From contig OZ024765.1 of the NCBI GenBank assembly GCA_964016885.1, forward strand, positions 16,058,001 through 16,122,000: DNA of 64,000 nucleotides, written 5' to 3'. Under the pieces are notes generated by a model. The model was not told the DNA's origin and ran no database searches. It saw only the letters and a program-made list of their open reading frames with translations. The stretch's first letter is position 1, and each line of letters starts with the position of its first letter. The translations under genes and the position numbers were made by a program. This DNA comes from Eledone cirrhosa. Lineage: Eukaryota. Below are positions 3,001 to 63,565 of this stretch, in pieces.

Positions 3001-3187
3001 GGCGGTGGATTAGCAGTATCGGTAGAGAGTCGGACACCATGCTTTGAAGCATAGAGTTTCGGCCCTTTATGATCTAAGTTCAAATTCCGCCGAGGTTAAC
3101 TTTGCCTTTCATCCTTACAGGGTCGATAAAGTAAAGTACTAGTAATGTACTGGTTATTGCTGGCCTTGAGCCAAAAGTAGAAACAAA
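3001..3187 (+). mobile_element. SINE family 1 copy
   Basis: GGCGGTGGATTAGCAGTATCGG head, AAGTTCAAATTCC B box, GTAGAAACAA tail. Confidence 0.85.
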
Positions 3188-5399: not shown

Positions 5400-6240
5400 A
5401 TTTGTAGACTATGAATTAGGGATCTGCACTCTTTGTCTACAGATGCAAGTTCAGTTATACTTTGGTCCAAGTGGGTTGGTATATTACCTGTAGCTCCAAA
5501 AATAATTGTTTCTACTTTTGGCACAAGGCCAGCAATTATCCCAGTGCATTACTGGTACTTTATTGTATCGTCCACATAACGATGAAAGGCAAAGTGGGGT
5601 TTAACATCAAAACGTAAAGGGCCGAAACTATATGCCACAAGCATATAGTCCAGCGCTCTACCGATGTTGCAATAGGACGCCATAATAATTGTTTCTACTT
5701 TTGGCAGAAGGCCAGCAATTATCTCAGTGCATTACTGGTACTTTATTTTATCGACCCCGTAAGGATGAACGGCAAAGTTAACCTCGTCGGGATTTGAACT
5801 CAGTCCATAAAAGGGACGTAACTGTGCTGCAAAGAATGGCGTCCGACCCTTTACTGATACTGCCAATCCCCCCCAATAATAATGGGTATAAAACTTATGG
5901 TCTATCTTGGATACTGGATCTGCAAACTCCGCATCAATGGTCCGTAGATGTCCTCCTCCTCTTGTTAATTTTCTTACAACTTTGACATCAAGTGGGCAGC
6001 TGATCTCAACAACAGATCACATTTTCATTGTGTGGTCCCCAACAACAATATCAGGCCGGTTGTGTTCTAATTTGGTGGCAGTTTTTATTTTCAGGTTCCA
6101 CCAGTATTGTTTAGTGCCATCTATCTCAACATATTCCGCCTCATATGTTTTGAATCGTTCCAGATGGTTCTAGCTATCACATCGCGTCTCATAGGGAGGT
6201 AGTAACGAGACGACATTCTTTCGCAGTTGGCAATAATGTG
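5400..6240 (-). mobile_element. R4/Dong/NeSL-type LINE fragment (restriction-like endonuclease domain), split by two SINEs
   Basis: Minus strand reads YWWNLKIKTATKLEHNRPDIVV...VVEISCPLD...KFIPII, then IIFGATG on the far side of the SINEs. Confidence 0.7.
5503..5875 (-). mobile_element. Two tandem SINE family 1 copies
   Basis: Two copies (about 5503-5682 and 5688-5872) similar to 67-262. Confidence 0.85.
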
Positions 6241-8460: not shown

Positions 8461-9071
8461 AGCGTTATTACTATAAACAGTTATTACTATAAACAGTTAT
8501 TACTATAAACAGTTAATACTATAAACAGTTACTACTATAAACAGTTAATACTATAAACAGTTACTACTATAAACAGTTAATACTATAAACAGTTACTACT
8601 ATAAACAGTTATCACTATAAACAGTTACTACTATAAACAGTTATTACTATAAACAGTTACTACTATAAACAGTTATCACTATAAACAGTTATTACTATAA
8701 ACAGTTATTACTATAAACAGTTATTACTATAACAGTTATCACTATAAACAGTTATCACTATAAACAGTTATCACTATAAACAGTTATTGCTATAAACAGT
8801 TATCACTATAAACAGTTATCACTATAAACAGTTAGCACTATAAACAGTTAGCACTATAAACAGTTACTACTATAAACAGTTACCACTATAAACAGTTATC
8901 GTTATAAACAGTTATTACTATAATCAGTTATTACTATAATCAGTTATTACTATAAACAGTTATCACTATAAACAGTTATTACTATAAACAGTTATCACTA
9001 TAAACAGTTATTACTATAAACATTTATTACTATAAACAGTTATTACTATAAACAGTTATGACTATAAACAG
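8461..9071 (+). repeat. 16-bp minisatellite (AGTTATTACTATAAAC)n, about 38 copies
   Basis: Direct inspection. Confidence 0.95.
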
Positions 9072-9072
9072 A

Positions 9073-9258
9073 GGGCGGTGGATTGGCAGTATCGGTAGAG
9101 GGTCAGACACCATGCTTTCCAGCATAGTCACGTCCCTTTACGATCTGAGTTCAAATCCCGCCGAGGTTAACTTTGCCTTTCATCCTTACGGGGTCGATAA
9201 AATAAAGTACCAGTAATGCACTGGATAATTGGTGGCCTTGTGCCTAAAGTAGAAACAG
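9073..9258 (+). mobile_element. SINE family 1 copy
   Basis: A and B boxes, body and GTAGAAACAG tail. Confidence 0.88.
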
Positions 9259-9609
9259 TTATTACTATACACAGTCTCTCAGACACTCCTTCACAATCTA
9301 TCTCTCACATACGTCTTCTCTCTCTCACTCTCTCTATCTCTTTCTCTCGTTCTCACACAAATATAGAAGCACACACACACACACACACACACATCCTTCC
9401 ACTAAACACCTTCAGAAATATCTACCTATGTTCCAACTGGAGACGGGCTCTCATAATTGGTATCAACAAGCGATTGAACTCCATTTAATGTCTCCCTATC
9501 TCCGTTCACATACATCACTCACTTGCTTCCTATGTTGGACACATACTGGACCTTTTTTCAGAGCGTTTGGCGTAGGGCAGGCATGTCAAACATGGGTCCC
9601 ACGGGCCAC

Positions 9610-16163: not shown

Positions 16164-16189
16164 GTGAATATACATATAAATAATAATAA

Positions 16190-16375
16190 TAATTGTTTCT
16201 ACTATTAGCACAAGGCCAGAACTAAACCAGTACATTACTGGTACTTTATTTTATCGACCCCGTAAGGATGAAAGACAAAGTCAACCTCGGCGGGATTTGA
16301 ACTCAGAATGGCAAGGGCCGTAACTCTATGCGTCAAAGCATGGCGTCCGACCCTCTACCGATACTGCCAATCCAT
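16190..16375 (-). mobile_element. SINE family 1 copy
   Basis: Close match to 67-262. Confidence 0.88.
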
Positions 16376-21660: not shown

Positions 21661-21957
21661 TTCTATGTAACAAAGTATACCCTATATCTAAACCTACCTC
21701 TACATATCGTGCTGAATCAAGGTGTTTTTAATGCAACACCTGGCATCGCAGGCCAATCGGTTGTCTATTATTACGTCTTAAGATTGAATTCTCTTCCGAA
21801 GGCAAGAAGAATAATTGAGAAGAAAAAAGAAACCACATTTCCAAATCCCCTGAAGTAAACTCTGGCCTAAAACCTAAAACAATATCATGTTCTTCTATAT
21901 TGAGTAATTGGTTTTCGATTTTTTTTCCCCCATCTCTACCGCTAGCAATAATAATAC

Positions 21958-22290
21958 TTGTTTCTACTGTTGGCACAAGGCCAGCAATTATTCCAGTGTA
22001 TTACTGGTACTTTATTTTAGAGACTCCCTAAGGATGAAAGGCAAAGTTAGCCTCGATAGGATTTGAACTCAGATCATAAAGGAGTGCAACCCTATGCTGC
22101 AATGCATGGCGTTCGACCCTCTACCTATACTGCCAAGCCACCAACCTTAGCAATATTAATAATTGTTTCTACTTTTGGCACAAGGCCATCAATTATCCCA
22201 GTGCATTACTGGTACTTTATTTTATCGACCTCGTAAGGATGAAAGGCAAAGTCAACCTCGGCGGGATTTGAACTCAGATCGTAAAGGGAT
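21958..22290 (-). mobile_element. Two SINE family 1 copies (second is partial)
   Basis: Similarity to 67-262. Confidence 0.85.
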
Positions 22291-22338
22291 TAATAATAAT
22301 AATAAAAGTGGTCACCACTGGTTTTGTTCGGATGTATA

Positions 22339-22478
22339 TAGTCCAGAATTAGCCGTCTAAACGGCTTGAGCTCAGCCGTCGGAGTCCTGCTTGTTCATAT
22401 TACCCACTCTACTACCCTAAGTATTGGGTACTTTGGTGTGTTATGGTCCATCTGGTTCCTTACCACACTTCTTCCGTT
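22339..22478 (+). mobile_element. Uninverted copy of the 24836-25194 family 3' region
   Basis: TAGTCCAGAATTAGCCGTC...GGTTCCTTACCACAC, running into (TA)n. Confidence 0.7.
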
Positions 22479-24494: not shown

Positions 24495-24652
24495 TGGCAC
24501 AAGGCCAGTAATTAACCAGTGCATTACTGGTACTTTATTTTATCCACCCCATAAAGGCGGAAGGCAAAGTTAACCTCGGCGGGATTTGAACTCAGTCCAT
24601 CAAGGGCCACCCTTTATGATGCAAATCGTGGCGCCCGACCCTCTACCGATGC
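24495..24652 (-). mobile_element. SINE family 1 copy
   Basis: Similarity to 67-262. Confidence 0.8.
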
Positions 24653-24795
24653 GGCCATGATGTAAAGGGGGGGGGGGGATAACACCATAGCTTGATGTGC
24701 TGATTTTTTACTTTAACAGTGTGTCTTGGCACCTAATATGTTTATACCACTTTTCTTCCACATGTGTTCCTACAACATGTATATATGGATGCATG

Positions 24796-24837: not shown

Positions 24838-25193
24838 TAGGAACGAGTAGGACCCCGACGGCTGAGCTCAAGCTAATTCTGGAGTAATTGAAAATGTTTA
24901 TCCTGGTACATGAATAGCCGAGAGCCGAGCTTCTCAGGGTGTATTTCCATATATGGTAAAAGTGATTGTCACACTTGTGACAATCACTTTTACCATATAT
25001 GGAAATACCTCCTCAGAAGCTCGGGTATTCATGTACCAGGATAAAAATGTTCATTTAGTCCAGAATTAGCCGTCGAAACGGCTGGAGCTCAGCCGTCGGG
25101 GTCCTACTCGTTACTATTGCCCACTCGACTACCCTAAGTATTGAGTACTTTGGTGCGTTATGGTCCATCTGATTCCTTACCACATTTCCTTCG

Positions 25194-25194
<1 letters not shown>
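24836..25194. mobile_element. Fold-back element in (TA)n with a 2-nt loop
   Basis: Arms 24836-24973 / 24976-about 25112. The right arm is extended by a tail to 25194. No canonical hammerhead core found. Confidence 0.75.
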
Positions 25195-25248
<54 letters not shown>

Positions 25249-26114: not shown

Positions 26115-26528
26115 AAATGGAAACTATATTTATAAAACCATATTTATTTCATTATACATATTTCAAGGGCCACAAAGGCAGATTATGGTGCGCTTTCATC
26201 ATATAAAATATAATATGGATTAGTTTTATAAATAAATATTGACATACCCTGAAAAATACAACCTTCCCAGTGAAGGTTGCATTTTTCAGGGTATGTCAAT
26301 ATTTATTTATAAAACTAATCTATATTATATTTTATTTGATGAAATCGCACCATAATCTGCCTAGCTGGCCCTTGAAATATGTGTAATGAAATAAATATGG
26401 TTTTATAAATATAGTTTCCATTTGTCAATATACATTGTATATTTACGCCAATTAATTTGTTGAGTGCGTTATATCAGTTATAAAAATATTTCGCTTGTTG
26501 TATCACAACAAATTAAATATAACCTCTA
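26113..26528. mobile_element. Fold-back element with degenerate hammerhead, related to 2031-2403
   Basis: Arms 26113-26266 / 26272-26425 with a 5-nt loop, tail to 26528. Core tattttat-TTGATGA...GAAA-TATGTG-TA-atgaaata at about 26328-26393. Confidence 0.75.
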
Positions 26529-31111: not shown

Positions 31112-31388
31112 GTCTGTCTGTCTTAAGCCAGAAGTCTCATTTGGCCAGTGTTTATCCCGCTTTCATGGCGTGAAGCGACTAAGAGTACAAGACTTCCCCC
31201 TGGACAGGACGCCAGTCCATCACAGGGTTAAACCCCAAGCTATCCCGGTTACTCATTTTCAGCTCAGTTTACAAGAGCAACGTGAAATGAAGTGCTTTGC
31301 TCAAGAGCACAACACACAACCCAGGAATCGAACCCACGACATAATGATCGTAAGTCGAACACCCTTACCACTAGGCCACGTGCCTCCA
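31112..31388 (-). mobile_element. tRNA-derived SINE family 2
   Basis: Reverse complement has A box TGGCCTAGTGG, B box GGTTCGATTCC and body motif CCCTGTGATGGACTGGCGTCCTGTCCAGGG. Confidence 0.85.
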
Positions 31389-32994: not shown

Positions 32995-33033
32995 AGAATA
33001 TAAATATTAATAAAAAAGATGTTCATTTGATCA

Positions 33034-33096
33034 ATTACATTTTATTGTACATATTTCGGATGTACAATAGTACGTCCTCATCAGACAAAATATAAT
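33034..33096 (-). ncRNA. Minimal hammerhead ribozyme (inverted arm; U16.1 appears changed to C)
   Basis: attatattttgt-CTGATGA-ggacgtac/gtacatcc-GAAA-TATGTA-CA-ataaaatgtaat. Stem I is 12 bp including G-U pairs. Confidence 0.7.
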
Positions 33097-33188
33097 GATA
33101 CATGACATACCGTGAGATGTTAAATGGTTAAGATTTAATCAAGGTAGTAAATCTTAACCATTTAACATCTCAGGGTATGTCATGTATC

Positions 33189-33251
33189 ATTATATTTTGT
33201 CTGATGAGGACGTACTGTTGTACATCCGAAATATGTATAAGAAAATGTAAT
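33189..33251 (+). ncRNA. Minimal type I hammerhead ribozyme
   Basis: attatattttgt-CTGATGA-ggacgtac(tgtt)gtacatcc-GAAA-TATGTA-TA|agaaaatgtaat. Confidence 0.8.
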
Positions 33252-33388
33252 TGATCAAAAGAACATCTATTTCATTGATATTTATATTTTAATATTAATA
33301 ACTCTGGAAAATTATTGTGACGTAGAGTGCTTCCAATCTACTGTAAAACTCATTCTTTGATATACTCACTGAATCTTGTTTAACACTT

Positions 33389-33441
<53 letters not shown>

Positions 33442-33677: not shown

Positions 33678-34885
<1,208 letters not shown>

Positions 34886-40676: not shown

Positions 40677-40721
<45 letters not shown>

Positions 40722-40978
40722 GTAGGAGGTGAGTTTTATTGTAGTACAATAAAGCAATGCAGATATCGGATAAGAAGCACTCTACAGTTTGTGGGACTGG
40801 AGTATGCATAATATGTTGATTTAAAACTGCACTATCAACAAGTGTTTTTTTAGCCTTCATATCATGTTCTCCTGTTTTATCTGATGAAAACACAAATATT
40901 ATTGTTTGATGATGTTTGTTTTTGAAATGCGCATAATAAAATATATTGAACTCCTTTAACCATCTTTTGATCTTATAT

Positions 40979-41956: not shown

Positions 41957-42066
<110 letters not shown>

Positions 42067-42114
42067 TACATACATACGTACATACGTATATATATACGTA
42101 TATACATACTTACG

Positions 42115-42148
<34 letters not shown>

Positions 42149-42167
42149 TGCATATATACATACATAC

Positions 42168-42210
<43 letters not shown>

Positions 42211-42430
42211 TGCATATATACATACATACGTACATACGTATATATATATATATATATAGATATAGATAGGTAAATATACACGGGTGTGTATGATTGTGTA
42301 TAGAAGATTATATTAATAAGAGGAATTCCAACTTTGTCTGATTTACTCGTTTTATTTACAATCCTTTAAAATATATATAATGGTATTATAATGAAATAGT
42401 ATGATAGAATATTAAATTCTAAGTGTTAAT

Positions 42431-42469
42431 TGAACAAGTACTTTCATGCTTTCGCAATCTTCAGGTTCA
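42431..42469 (-). ncRNA. Hammerhead ribozyme in the inverted pLTR
   Basis: Reverse complement of 44303-44341. Confidence 0.78.
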
Positions 42470-42658
42470 TGATATGTGGTGACAGTCGAGTTTGCAATTT
42501 TCAACTGTAATGAGATGGGTAAATTTCCTACCTTTTATACATTTTATACAGAGAAAAGTGGCTCCAGAATGCAAAATTGGAGAGATGGGTGTAGGTTATT
42601 CAGGAGGATATTGAACTCATCCAGAGTATCTAGAGATTCTGTCCAGATGATGAAACAG

Positions 42659-43927
42659 GCGCCATTTATATTAGACGCAGTTAAACTTATTCTGGAAAAC
42701 AACACTTTCTTCTTCAATGGAAAGAATTACATCCAAATTAGAGGCACAGCGATGGGAACGAAGTTTGCTCCCGTTTACGCGAACTCTGTAATGGGATACT
42801 TAGAACAACAACTCTACCAAGAAATAGAGGAAAAATATAGTACTGACTTTAGAAAGTACATTGAAAAATCTTGGAAGAGATACCTTGACGACTGTTTCAT
42901 CATCTGGACAGAATCTCTAGATACTCTGGATGAGTTCAATATCCTCCTGAATAACCTACACCCATCTCTCCAATTCACAAAAGAGAAGAGTAGGACCAAA
43001 TTACCATTCCTAGATATAATGATAATCAAAAACGACACCACCATTACCACGGATATATATTATAAACACACAGACACCCATCAATATCTGAATTTTAAGT
43101 CGTGCCATCCACCTCATACAAAACGCAACATCCCATACTGCCTAGCCAGAAGAATTTGTACCATTGTAGAAGATACGAATACCAGGTACAAACGCCTAAC
43201 AGAACTAAGAGAATTTTTGCTCAAACAAAAATACCCATCTCTACTTATAGAAAATGGCATACAGCGGGCTATAAAAATACCTATACAACAACTTAGAACA
43301 ACCCAAAGAAGAAGAAACCAAGAACTGGTCATACCATTTATAATGACACACAACCCATGTCACCAGAATATCTTCAACACTGCCAAAGCAAACCTACCGA
43401 TCATTGCTCAAAGTAATGAATTAAAAGGCTTAATCACAGATCGATCTTTGACTCTTAGTAAAAGACAGCCAAAAAATTTGAAGCAATTGCTAACAAAAGC
43501 AAAGTTTGACCTTAACAACAAAGACCAATCATTCACTGTATCTAAATGCAATGATAATCGATGCGGCACATGTCAATCCATACACGCCGGTCAATATATG
43601 AAAACAAAAACTGGAAAAATATTCACAAATGCAAATATGAACTGCAAAAGCAGAAATCTAATTTACTGCATTAAATGCCCGAATTGTGAAGAACTATATG
43701 TCGGTCAAACTGGAAATGCACTATCGGAACGTGCACGGGTACACCGTCAACAAATCAGAGACCCAAATGTCCGTCAGATACCCCTAAGCGGCCACCTGGC
43801 AACATGTGGTCAGGGAATATTTATAATATTCCCATTCTACAAATTACACAGCCCAAATGAAATCAAGAGAAAAATCAAAGAAAATAATTTTATTGATAAA
43901 TTCAAACCCAAGCTAAATGAACAATAA
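42659..43927 (+). CDS. Penelope-like RT (C-terminal half) plus GIY-YIG endonuclease; N-terminus missing
   Basis: QIRGTAMG, RYLDD, LPFLD, SCHP, Cys linker CNDNRCGTC, NLIYCIKCPNCEELYVGQT, R..H and KPKLN. The first ~61 aa of the listed 483-aa ORF come from the inversions. Confidence 0.92.
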   Translation, partial: APFILDAVKLILENNTFFFNGKNYIQIRGTAMGTKFAPVYANSVMGYLEQQLYQEIEEKYSTDFRKYIEKSWKRYLDDCFIIWTESLDTLDEFNILLNNLHPSLQFTKEKSRTKLPFLDIMIIKNDTTITTDIYYKHTDTHQYLNFKSCHPPHTKRNIPYCLARRICTIVEDTNTRYKRLTELREFLLKQKYPSLLIENGIQRAIKIPIQQLRTTQRRRNQELVIPFIMTHNPCHQNIFNTAKANLPIIAQSNELKGLITDRSLTLSKRQPKNLKQLLTKAKFDLNNKDQSFTVSKCNDNRCGTCQSIHAGQYMKTKTGKIFTNANMNCKSRNLIYCIKCPNCEELYVGQTGNALSERARVHRQQIRDPNVRQIPLSGHLATCGQGIFIIFPFYKLHSPNEIKRKIKENNFIDKFKPKLNEQ

Positions 43928-44302
43928 TAACGCCTAGGGGTATTACTTCTACTACCACTATGACCACGACCACTAACAACAACAACAACAACAATAATAA
44001 TGATAATAAAAGTGATGTTGATGGTGATGATTAATAGAAAATGCTATTTTCATCATTTCAAAAAAGCAAAACAATTGATACGTTGGATATGACTATTGGT
44101 CGTTAGCATGCTCAACCAGCCGTGACGCTTAAACCAATCAGCTGTAGTAATTCAGTGAAACTACACACTGATTGGTCGAAATACAGTTTACAGGGCTTTG
44201 CATTCTGGAGCCACTTTTCTCTGTATAAAATGTATAAAAGGTAGGAAATTTACCCATCTCATTACAGTTGAAAATTGCAAACTCGACTGTCACCACATAT
44301 CA

Positions 44303-44341
44303 TGAACCTGAAGATTGCGAAAGCATGAAAGTACTTGTTCA
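44303..44341 (+). ncRNA. Minimal type I hammerhead ribozyme in the 3' pLTR
   Basis: tgaac-CTGAAGA-ttgc(gaaa)gcat-GAAA-GTAC-TT|gttca. Stem III is the palindrome AGTACT. Confidence 0.8.
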
Positions 44342-44455
44342 ATTAACACTTAGAATTTAATATTCTATCATACTATTTCATTATAATACCATTATATATA
44401 TTTTAAAGGATTGTAAATAAAACGAGTAAATCAGACAAAGTTGGAATTCCTCTTA

Positions 44456-44505
<50 letters not shown>

Positions 44506-44538
44506 CATATATGCATATATACATACATACGTACATAC

Positions 44539-44587
<49 letters not shown>

Positions 44588-45060
44588 TGCATATATACAT
44601 ACATACGTACATACGTATATATATATATTTTACAGGAATGTGAATATAACTATTAGGATATACAGAGGAGTACGCTGTAGTTTCAGAATGGCGATGTGAA
44701 GAGTAGTGAGAGGTTAGACTATAGAAGACCTTGGAAGCATATATACACTCCTTGTGTTGTTAAGACTAACACACATTGTTAATATCATGCATATAACATA
44801 TATACATCCATGGATGTTTGTATATATACGTGTGTCTGTATGAGATGGAGTTGGTGCATGTGTGTGCTTTCTGTGTGTGACACTACCTATATCTTCCCAT
44901 CTTTATTTGTATATGTATATGTAAATATATATATATCTATATATATATATATATAGAACTGTATTTCCCGTGTCTTAATCGATATACATAAATATAATCA
45001 TATGTATGTATATATATATATATATATATATATAATCATACATATATAAACATATATACA

Positions 45061-45750: not shown

Positions 45751-46658
45751 TGTAATAATGATAAATTTGAAGACTAAAATCCAAAGAGGGTCGATAGGAT
45801 AAATATATATCAAATATATAAGAACCGTAGAGCAAATATTTATTAAAATAACAGATTAACGGGATCTTCTGAAACTAAAAAAAAACAAACTGTGAGGGCA
45901 GATGTAAATATTTCGAAAAACGTTGCAACCGAAGGAAGACAGGAAGACGATAGTTTGGTTCGAGGAAAAGTTCCCTGTCAAAGAACGGGAAAAAAACAAA
46001 GATAATACGTCATAATTTGGAGCAGTGAAAACTATTACACGCAAAGACAAAACCACGTTCATGATATAAATGAAGTCCTAGACTAATATTCTATTAGGTG
46101 GTTCGTGGAGACATTCACTGGCAATGAACGGAAAAAACGAAGATAATACGTCATTACGTTTTGCGTGAGAACAATTACAAGCAAAGACAAAACCACGTAA
46201 AAGATATAACTGCAGTCGTAGACTAAAATTCTATTTAGGAAACTAAATGATTCTCTGCTTCAGAGTTAAGAATAATGTTAATAAATTACAGAGGTTAATG
46301 AAATCAACAATAATTAAAATATATAAATGCACGCATCCATATACGTAAATACACATGCATACGCGGAAACACCCGCCATGGGTTCTACGACTTCATTTAT
46401 ACCATGACGTGGTTTTGTCTTTGCGTGTAATTGTTTTCACCGTTCCAAATAATGGCGTTTCTTTTTTTTTCCGTTCTTTGCCAGGCAACGTTACCACGAA
46501 CCAAAGTATCGTCTTCCTGTCTTCCTACGGTTGCAACGTTTTTCGAAATATTTACTTCTGTGCTCACAGATTGATTTTTTTTTAGTTTCAGAAGACCCTG
46601 TTAAGGGTGAAAGCAGCGATTCTTTGCTTAAACTTTAGTCTGTTATTTTAATAAATTT
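45750..46658. mobile_element. Large diverged inverted-repeat element in (TA)n with a hammerhead-like motif
   Basis: Arms about 45836-46082 / 46384-46658, a partial third copy at 46097-46235, and a tail at 45750-45835 on the left arm. Confidence 0.7.
46584..46634 (+). ncRNA. Variant hammerhead (CAGAAGA core)
   Basis: agttt-CAGAAGA-ccct(gtta)agggt-GAAA-gca..tgc-TT|aaact. Confidence 0.5.
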
Positions 46659-47439: not shown

Positions 47440-48142
47440 AAGTCTGCATTAAGCCAGAGGGCTCATTTGGCCGCTTCTTATCGCGGTGTCATGGCGTGAA
47501 GCGACAGAGAGTACTATACTCCCCCCTGGACAGGACGCCAGTCCATCGCAGGGTTAAAGTCTGTCTTAAGCCAGAGGGCTCATTTGGCCGGTGCTTATCC
47601 CGGTTTCATGGCGTGAAGCAACTGAGAGTACTATACTGCCCCCCTGGACAGGACGCCAGTCCATCGCAGGGTTAAAGTCTGTCTTAAGTCAGAGGGTTCA
47701 TTTGGCCGGTGCTTATCCCGGTTTCATGGCGTGAAGCGACTGAGAGTACTATACTCCCCCCTGGAAAGGACGCCAGTCCATCGCAGGGTTAAAGTCTGTC
47801 TTAAGTCAGAGGGTTCATTTGGCCGGTGCTTATCCCGGTTTCATGGCGTGAAGCAACTGAGAGTACTATACTCCCCCCTGGACAGGACGCCAGTCCATCG
47901 CAGGGTTAAAGTCTGTCTTAAGTCAGAGGGTTCATTTGGCTGGTGGTTATCCCGGTTTCATGGCGTGAAGCAACTGAGAGTACTATACTCCCCCCCTGGA
48001 CAGGACGCCAGTCCATCGCAGGGTTAAAGTCTGTCTTAAGCCAGAAGACTCACTTTGCCGGTGGTTATCCCGGTTTCGTGATATGAAGCAACTAAAATCA
48101 CAAGACTCACACCTGGACAGGACACCAGTCCATTGCAGGGTC
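47440..48142 (-). repeat. Tandem array of 6 units of about 117 bp, from the SINE family 2 3' part
   Basis: The unit matches 31115-31232. Confidence 0.92.
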
Positions 48143-48196
48143 ATACCCTGCCATGGACTCACGCTAAAGCCCCAGCTTTTGCTGGTACACATTTTC

Positions 48197-60299: not shown

Positions 60300-60410
60300 G
60301 GCGGTGGAACGTCAGTATCGGTAGAACCGCAGACACCATTTGAACTCAGAACGTAAAGGGCCCTAACTCTATGCTGTAAAGCATGTTCTCCGACGCTCTA
60401 CCGATACTGA
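60300..60410. mobile_element. Rearranged SINE family 1 heads in inverted orientation
   Basis: A plus-strand head CAGTATCGGTAGA is joined to a minus-strand head ending TCTACCGATACTG. Confidence 0.6.
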
Positions 60411-60952
60411 TAATGCAAATAATAGATTTTTTTTTCTTTACTATAAAACTTTTCGATGGCCTCATTAGCCTGATGAGCGGATTCTCAATACAGAAACACT
60501 TTATTCCATTCCTAAGAACATTTTATCTTCATCTGTGTAAATGATGTAGCATACGTTTTCTTTTTTCCTTTATGCTCGTTTTGTATATTTTAACTTTATT
60601 CACAGCTTGTGAAATAAATGGGAAGAAAGGGAAAGAAAACATGGAGTCGTTCATTGATTGTTGGGAGTCCCAAACGGCATCCATGTCAAATTTTAAATTA
60701 TGAAGGTGAATAATTTTAAATAGCAGGATCTACAGCTGGGTTTTAAACATACTCACACACACACGCGCGCGCACACACACACACACGCACGCACGCACGC
60801 ACGCACGCACACGCACATGCACACACACACACGCGCACGCATATTTACACAAAATCAACAAATGGAGGTACCCTGAAAATCCCATATCTCAGGAACACGT
60901 GGTCCGATTTACGCGAAACTTGTTTTATTCCATTTGTATTGCCATTTCAGAG

Positions 60953-63050: not shown

Positions 63051-63111
63051 CGTATGTATATATATATATATATAATATAAGATCAAAAGATGGTTAAAGG
63101 AGTTCAATATA

Positions 63112-63178
63112 TTTTATTATGCGCATTTCAAAAACAAACATCATCAAACAATAATATTTGTGTTTTCATCAGATAAAA
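63112..63178 (-). ncRNA. Minimal hammerhead ribozyme (inverted arm)
   Basis: Reverse complement of 63333-63399. Confidence 0.8.
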
Positions 63179-63332
63179 CAGGAGAACATGATATGAAGGC
63201 TAAAAAAAACACTTGTTGATAGTGCAGTTTTAAATCAACATATCATGTTGATTTAAATCAACATATCATGTTGATTTAAAACTGCACTATCAACAAGTGT
63301 TTTTTTTTTAGCCTTCATATCATGTTCTCCTG

Positions 63333-63399
63333 TTTTATCTGATGAAAACACAAATATTATTGTTTGATGATGTTTGTTTTTGAAATGCGCATAATAAAA
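63333..63399 (+). ncRNA. Minimal type I hammerhead ribozyme
   Basis: ttttat-CTGATGA-stem II-GAAA-TGCGCA-TA|ataaaa. Confidence 0.82.
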
Positions 63400-63522
63400 T
63401 ATATTGAACTCCTTTAACCATCTTTTGATCTTATATTATGCATACTCCAGTCCCACAAACTGTAGAGTGCTTCTTATCCGATATCTGCATTGCTTTATTG
63501 TACTACAATAAAACTCACCTCC

Positions 63523-63565
<43 letters not shown>

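Follow-up and report, generated by a model that had tools for sequence, protein, structure and literature searches.

A 5'-truncated, probably Neptune-type Penelope-like element with unequal head-to-head arms in a TA-rich minisatellite of Eledone cirrhosa

Inverted, 5'-truncated copies and one-sided tails are common among Penelope-like elements (PLEs), as described in the accessible text of PMC8557442 and PMC3846280. In vitro evidence on how the inverted pLTRs and one-sided tails arise comes from a single study, which concerns a Poseidon element and does not extend to the later steps. One locus of Eledone cirrhosa, within the 64,000-nucleotide stretch of contig OZ024765.1 analyzed here (the window), raises the question of which events leave a coding element facing an inverted copy of its own 3' end, and whether such an element could be the motor of the non-coding hairpins found in the same window. 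The stretch is very probably a 5'-truncated Neptune-type copy, and it is a new member of an already published head-to-head layout rather than a new kind of element.

The whole insertion occupies 42259-44463, between (TA)n arrays. The target is a minisatellite, whose left part (42053-42258, plus strand) holds three copies of a compound unit, two of them degenerate, with (TA)n between them, and whose right part (44464-44628, plus strand) holds (TA)n and two exact units. Exact units are found at 42205, 44506, and 44582, degenerate ones at 42053 and 42143, and all share a single orientation. The presence of the unit on both sides of the element, reported from the letters alone in an earlier sequence-only reading, is thus confirmed and is accounted for by insertion of the element into a pre-existing array. 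The insertion site is a (TA)n spacer inside a minisatellite array of at least five units, where a unit-length target-site duplication and an insertion into an existing array are indistinguishable.

The right arm, consisting of 3' UTR and pLTR (44197-44463, plus strand), ends in TATA and passes directly into (TA)n. The tail, an AC-rich stretch of 50 nt with a weak 6-bp stem-loop (fold z -0.85) and a TA-like outer end, is present only outside the left arm (42259-42308, minus strand), in agreement with the one-sided tail of ~50 nt noted earlier. The TATA at 44460-44463 is common to the target and the tail start, and the tail's own end is TA-like; both outer ends are therefore ambiguous with the target. 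A related locus, L011, displays a like pattern, with TATAT after the pLTR inside the element and (TA)n at the flank. Once seven related-locus sites near a contig end are excluded (two of the seven had such a run), a TA run of at least 10 nt lies 60-200 nt past the hammerhead at 5 of 23 related-locus sites, compared with 1 of 557 control windows; these runs may be target DNA instead of element. Self-comparison and the list of frames reveal no second copy of the element or its protein in the 64-kb window.

The 5'-truncated ORF (42659-43927, plus strand) has 422 codons and encodes RT motifs B to E, the thumb, a Cys linker, and a GIY-YIG domain. The frame is uninterrupted, as previously claimed, with no stop from 42659 until the stop codon at 43925-43927. 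Judged against full-length relatives of ~740-800 aa, ~320 N-terminal residues are missing: the ORF starts just before motif B and is devoid of the N-terminal domain, DKG, and RT motif A, and the region of DKG and the N-terminal motifs that is absent from this copy is present in the relatives. The YLDD catalytic motif lies at 42881-42892 (plus strand) and the GIY-YIG endonuclease, with its CCHH residues and conserved R, H, E, and N, at 43658-43918 (plus strand). PF01541 is matched at residues 334-420 (E 2e-06) and PF00078 partially (E 0.0019), both of which full-length relatives have. The CCHH residues (C340, C343, H362, and H379) are invariant in 14 of 14 aligned sequences, with two cysteines between GIY and YIG, and the endonuclease domain is whole in this copy.

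A contig of sequencing run X1 matches the element from 42659 without difference and extends 287 nt upstream, which shows that the truncation is specific to this copy; the 30 upstream letters shown from this contig translate in frame and are similar to relative P0126. Without RT motif A, the copy encodes no working RT and is therefore not autonomous. Its possible product could be at most an endonuclease-only protein or a hammerhead-bearing RNA, and it is best seen as a passenger that records the mechanism. The frame is also open for 62 codons further upstream through the inverted arm (42473-43927), and an in-frame ATG at 42515 allows a possible 470-aa endonuclease-only chimera; such an extension arises in 0.5% of shuffles, was found post hoc, and is probably due to chance.

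The best protein matches are 64-65% identical, and the named ones are unannotated bivalve proteins with at most 58% identity. Because two protein searches return no protein above 65% identity, an intact member of the family was not found, and a search of genome contigs yields three loci only, all distant. A PDB sequence search returns no match below E 0.2. Some Neptune-type PLE sequences (L081-L083; P0002, P0011, and P0026) are located on short contigs of bacterial symbiont or metagenome-assembled genomes and are likely contamination by animal host DNA.

Assignment to the Neptune type relies on the C-terminal endonuclease with CCHH together with a long Cys linker, and is made by motif rather than by a tree with labeled references; at that level, the earlier description as Neptune-like is upheld. 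The linker motif C-x4-C-x2-C (43547-43573, plus strand) is followed by 23 residues to the next conserved Cys, which is the Neptune spacing. The same distance is 23-30 residues in 214 of 240 fetched relatives, the other 26 giving no regular-expression match. It amounts to 25-27 residues in four Neptune-type rows of fig. S2 of PMC8557442 (counted by eye) and to ~7 or fewer in the Nematis rows, and Penelope/Poseidon rows have no linker. The order of RT then GIY-YIG, the CCHH residues, the inverted pLTR with a tail, and the pLTR hammerhead are those of endonuclease-containing PLEs, whose pLTRs may be direct or inverted and whose tail is optional (PMC8557442). The 23 residues seen here differ from the reduced linker of Nematis (~7 residues from CxxC to the next Cys), and the presence of a Cys linker from Penelope/Poseidon, which have none. 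The C-terminal endonuclease and the hammerhead set the copy apart from Naiad/Chlamys, in which the endonuclease is N-terminal and no canonical hammerhead exists, and the CCHH residues and linker from the Hydra type, which has no CCHH and a CxCX5C linker. The TA microsatellite bias of Neptune is evident at this site, in the loose ends of run X2, and in the TA runs of related loci. As far as the clade is described in the accessible text of PMC8557442, the copy shares with it the C-terminal GIY-YIG with CCHH, the long CX2-5CxxC linker, a GTAMG-type motif B, a microsatellite target, and a pLTR hammerhead; it is unlike Neptune elements in being truncated and in having its nearest proteins at 64-65% identity. 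That paper finds Neptune paraphyletic and discusses the TA bias as tied to the Cys linker. Named families closer to this one may exist in the supplements of the cited papers.

Each pLTR harbors a hammerhead, as had been proposed. A minimal type I hammerhead with a palindromic helix III and a 5-bp stem I is present at 44303-44341 (plus strand), with its inverted copy at 42431-42469 (minus strand). The pattern has 0 matches in each of 20 block-shuffled windows, and Rfam has 0 matches to the hammerhead at the gathering score. The monomer is not stably folded (z 0.29), which fits the dimer-type PLE ribozymes described in the accessible text of PMC4209133. Minimal PLE hammerheads (PMC4209133) and non-LTR retrozymes (bioRxiv 10.64898/2026.07.22.740005), so far as these sources are accessible, likewise have a type I core, a palindromic helix III, an unpaired base after A9, and an unstable monomer. 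Retrozymes are head-to-tail arrays (bioRxiv 10.64898/2026.07.22.740005, in part), whereas the hammerhead copies here are on opposite strands, such that one transcript has a single sense copy. Related loci, such as L001 and L017, have the same hammerhead layout downstream of the ORF with altered stems.

Self-comparison defines two inverted pairs: 42309-42575 is identical to 44197-44463 at 267 of 267 bases, and 42575-42658 to 42892-42975 at 84 of 84. These pairs substantiate both the essentially identical inverted pLTRs and the 84-bp inverted piece from just after YLDD that the sequence-only reading had described. The inverted arm (42309-42575, minus strand) comprises the pLTR and ~65 nt of upstream 3' UTR, and the source of the 84-nt piece (42575-42658, minus strand) begins within YLDD, at the last base of the codon for its second Asp. 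Read on its minus strand, the left part is contiguous: 84 nt of coding sequence, 3' UTR and pLTR, and the 50-nt tail, with the 1,221 nt between 42975 and 44197 missing. Both inverted pieces thus share a strand and abut, so that the strand switches once (42658/42659) and a single junction is of the deletion type (42575); what was read as a double inversion is instead one minus-strand arm from which 1,221 nt are absent. Splicing was considered as the origin of this gap and rejected, since the gap ends are not GT-AG.

The two junctions differ in character. At 42575, the overlap is 1 nt, no more than expected by chance. The strand switch falls inside an imperfect 10-nt inverted repeat formed by the truncation point and 42886-42895 (8 matches, 1 mismatch, and 1 gap), in which a 4-nt exact match and four of five further bases pair with 42886-42895 when the natural upstream letters are taken from the X1 contig. 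Under a microhomology rule that was set after the junction was seen, 42892 is the sole site of 1,765 in the body; with the letters of the window alone, 23 of 1,765 body sites reach a 4/6 match.

Sequencing reads provide information on the family as well as on the junctions. The read comparison covered 42251-44196 and considered the best 24 of the 403 loose ends, 15 of the 18 joints, and 24 of the 3,412 pieces. Among the best 15 of 18 joints from four runs, neither internal junction is bridged by any listed read or contig. Depth at 42576-42640 is zero in both X1 and X4, and the X24 reads there fit two places. The X24 library was apparently cut at AATT, which is the junction itself; a depth drop at 42975 in X24 was rejected as support for a deleted form because X24 ends pile up at AATT sites, one of which is 42972-42975. 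Across six runs from three studies with three organism labels, 0.64-0.77 of the sampled words are present, and with at most 0.77 the runs probably derive from other individuals; runs with small shares were left aside. No RNA run is listed among the matching runs, which says nothing about expression.

The arms are identical at 351 of 351 bases, and near-identical pieces occur in the runs; both observations agree with the recent insertion claimed earlier. In X1, six of the eight listed pieces have 9 differences in 1,374 nt and two are more divergent (5/105 and 5/99); in X4, which carries another organism label, the eight listed pieces split into five with 1-2 differences in 109-352 nt and three with 4-17. 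By these comparisons, the family is young, with older subfamilies. Pieces that are ~99% identical are present in a run with another organism label, with the share of words falling gradually over further labels; this cross-label near-identity reflects either close relatives or horizontal transfer.

The natural join of 44196 to the pLTR is present in four of four runs. The tail is also covered in four of four runs and is consequently a feature of the family. In X2, 28 contigs part from the element at 42309 and run on as (TA)n (consensus agreement 0.78), which makes tail-less ends in TA a family trait; the expectation that other copies are flanked by TA is borne out by these 28 loose ends. At six listed sites (42320, 42404, 42418-19, 42471, and 42488), both arms have the same letters while many or most other copies differ, as expected from a single source, although gene conversion could alternatively account for the identity of the arms. 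In X1 and X2, summed depth over the pLTR, which is not a copy number, exceeds that of most body bins ~10- to 30-fold, an excess not seen in X4; all three runs show a depth step near 42510. In one X1 contig, the sequence turns back on itself at 42507 and continues as an inverted pLTR; the family therefore makes at least one short head-to-head pLTR junction.

The reading that we prefer, at slightly better than an even chance, is that the junctions record two reverse-transcription starts and one fold-back in one event that produced two unequal head-to-head arms, the source likely being an intact family member elsewhere in the genome. The GIY-YIG endonuclease would have cut both strands of a TA tract, and each 3' end would have primed RT. 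The long arm would have started from the pLTR end (44463) and halted near 42659, and the short arm would have been primed at the tail end and halted at 44197, where the 3' UTR is predicted to be structured. The long cDNA would then have folded back, pairing through the imperfect 10-nt inverted microhomology at a distance of 233 nt, and used itself as the template for 84 nt, after which the folded-back end and the short cDNA would have been joined through the 1-nt overlap and the gaps filled.

Both end points are used by the family, since the tail is present in four of four runs and 28 X2 contigs stop at 42309. By analogy, a Poseidon PLE offers a precedent that may extend to this copy: in the accessible text of PMC11167929, the protein cuts and extends both target strands in vitro, and RT initiates at two sites, one on either side of the tail, in an AC-rich stem-loop. 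A stable hairpin is predicted in the 3' UTR at 44133-44176 (plus strand; z -2.49), ~20 nt upstream of the point at which the inverted arm stops, and predicted folding near 44197 ranks fifth against 341 overlapping windows. Position 44197 as the exact foot of a large hairpin was seen in a short fold window and failed in wider ones, and a SECIS/selenoprotein reading of the hairpin was rejected, the frame having no TGA. Several points count against this reading: the fold-back loop of 233 nt is long, the microhomology at the strand switch equally fits annealing of two cDNA ends, the putative stall at 44197 has predicted folding as its sole basis, no empty-site allele was seen, and the in vitro work concerns a Poseidon rather than a Neptune element.

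An unlikely alternative is the two-switch route of the sequence-only reading, in which a single cDNA that began at the tail came to a halt near 42659 and, after folding back to copy 84 nt, made a forward jump of 1,221 nt on itself to copy the pLTR, with a later endonuclease trim of one end at the TA-like pLTR/tail boundary. It accommodates the microhomology at the strand switch and the identity of the arms, including their minority letters. Self-priming is proposed for head-to-head Penelope junctions in the accessible text of PMC3846280, and the tail is attributed to endonuclease resolution in that of PMC8557442. The cost is a long jump with a 1-nt overlap and an extra cut, whereas two RT start sites give a one-sided tail without trimming. 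The claim of at least two template switches thus survives as one of four routes but not as a requirement, because fold-back and end joining need no long jump.

Somewhat less likely still, the insertion was at first a near-perfect palindrome, with an inverted arm of ~1.6 kb and a 233-nt spacer, from which a later DNA deletion removed the equivalent of 42976-44196 in the inverted arm. The geometry fits exactly, and long inverted repeats are prone to deletion. An inverted-pLTR Penelope copy with an internal deletion is known from the accessible text of PMC3846280, but the deletions published there are microhomology-mediated, as opposed to the 1-nt overlap here, and zero substitutions between the arms leave little time for a second event. 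It is improbable that there were two cDNAs of which the short one switched position on RNA from 44197 to 42975, or had an internally deleted RNA as its template, and annealed to the long one through the microhomology: both junctions fit and 44197 lies in a predicted structured region, yet nothing explains why the source of the 84 nt lies within 233 nt of the long arm's end, and no deleted template is seen in four runs, although contigs drop rare forms. Very improbable is an assembly or amplification chimera of the 84-nt piece or the entire inverted arm, for even if neither junction is supported in four runs and palindromes in TA arrays assemble poorly, the junctions lack the long overlap on which an assembler would depend, the arm terminates in the true family tail, and the runs probably come from other individuals (at most 0.77 of words), with X24 apparently cut at AATT, the junction.

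In LINE-1 twin priming, two primers at one target break produce an inverted 5' part joined through microhomology. The preferred reading, of two reverse-transcription starts and one fold-back, resembles it in the two primers from a single break and the inverted 5' part; it differs in that the inverted part here duplicates the 3' end. Closer counterparts are found among PLEs. The accessible text of PMC3846280 describes, for Penelope of Adineta vaga, a copy with an inverted pLTR that has undergone internal deletion, as well as a fragment of ORF lying inverted alongside a 5' pLTR. The likeness to this copy extends to the inverted, shorter 5' pLTR, the one-sided tail, the internal deletions, and, in one family, an inverted ORF fragment of 304 bp adjoining the 5' pLTR. 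Unlike the present copy, the Adineta vaga elements belong to the Penelope/Poseidon clade and have a pLTR that includes the ORF start, a tail of 31 bp rather than 50, and readable target-site duplications (PMC3846280, in part). PAc, the Poseidon of Anolis carolinensis (PMC11167929, in part), has two ends about one tail apart, an AC-rich stem-loop tail, an AT-rich target, and a pLTR hammerhead, as does this copy; RT of PAc starts without homology to the cut DNA, whereas both end points here are TA-like and match the target.

The window contains five other head-to-head hairpins, each in a TA array: 2127-2393 (wider extent 2031-2393), with a strict hammerhead in one arm; 24845-25109 (24845-25195), with no hammerhead found; 26120-26418 (26120-26528) and 32999-33286 (32999-33390), both with a relaxed hammerhead core; and 63084-63439 (63084-63525), with strict hammerheads in both arms. 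Their arms are 84-98% identical and each has a stretch of ~85-105 nt on one side. The island at 40720-40978 is a half copy with a strict hammerhead; it retains, at 97-100% identity, a single arm of the 63 kb hairpin together with that hairpin's inverted tail, and the second arm is missing. The hairpins at 2 kb and 26 kb form one family (~80% alike), and 2451-2544 and 22336-22467 are tail-side fragments of the 24.8 kb hairpin family. The five hairpins are likely pLTR-only PLE derivatives with unusually long tails.

The element had been put forward as the motor of these hairpins. That role fails, as the copy has no RT motif A and a comparison with the six hairpin islands finds no likeness to its pLTR or tail beyond one 14-mer. 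According to the accessible text of PMC3846280, mobility depends on element-specific pLTRs; given that the pLTRs differ, this family is an example of the likely type of motor and not the motor of the hairpins, which were probably moved by other PLE families. The tie between the hairpins and PLE machinery therefore holds at the level of class, through hammerheads and one-sided tails, and not at the level of sequence, where one 14-mer is all that is common.

Further repeats are present in the window. An inverted repeat of ~230 bp (88%) around a 140-bp duplication lies between TA arrays at 45856-46604 and is possibly a MITE or an older hairpin. A SINE-like dispersed family of ~190 bp occurs in at least eight places on both strands, 80-95% alike (63-264, 3003-3180, 5498-5874, 9069-9268, 16182-16374, 21947-22289, 24495-24657, and 60338-60414). 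A 117-bp unit is repeated six times in tandem at 47440-48148, with a solo copy 16 kb off at 31116-31235. Related fragments at 33727-34686 and 1031-1759 (87-89%) may be coding sequence of another retroelement.

A joint reading of the element and the hairpins can be put forward only tentatively. Neptune elements would prime on both strands by pairing of TA with UA-rich sites flanking the tail, unlike the homology-free start of Poseidon, and fold-back joining would mass-produce hammerhead hairpins with 85-105-nt tails, five of which, from about four other families, would be those in the window; this copy would then be a frozen intermediate between coding element and hairpin. The literature consulted, mostly outside subscription papers (the 2005 and 2006 reviews among them), yielded neither TA-paired priming in Neptune elements nor head-to-head hammerhead hairpins as a class. 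A single copy proves neither TA pairing nor two-sided priming. The zero divergence between the arms keeps the junction letters readable, and a tally of many such copies could show whether priming was two-sided or a single strand folded back. Should the start sites indeed pair with TA, the microsatellite bias of Neptune elements would be explained.
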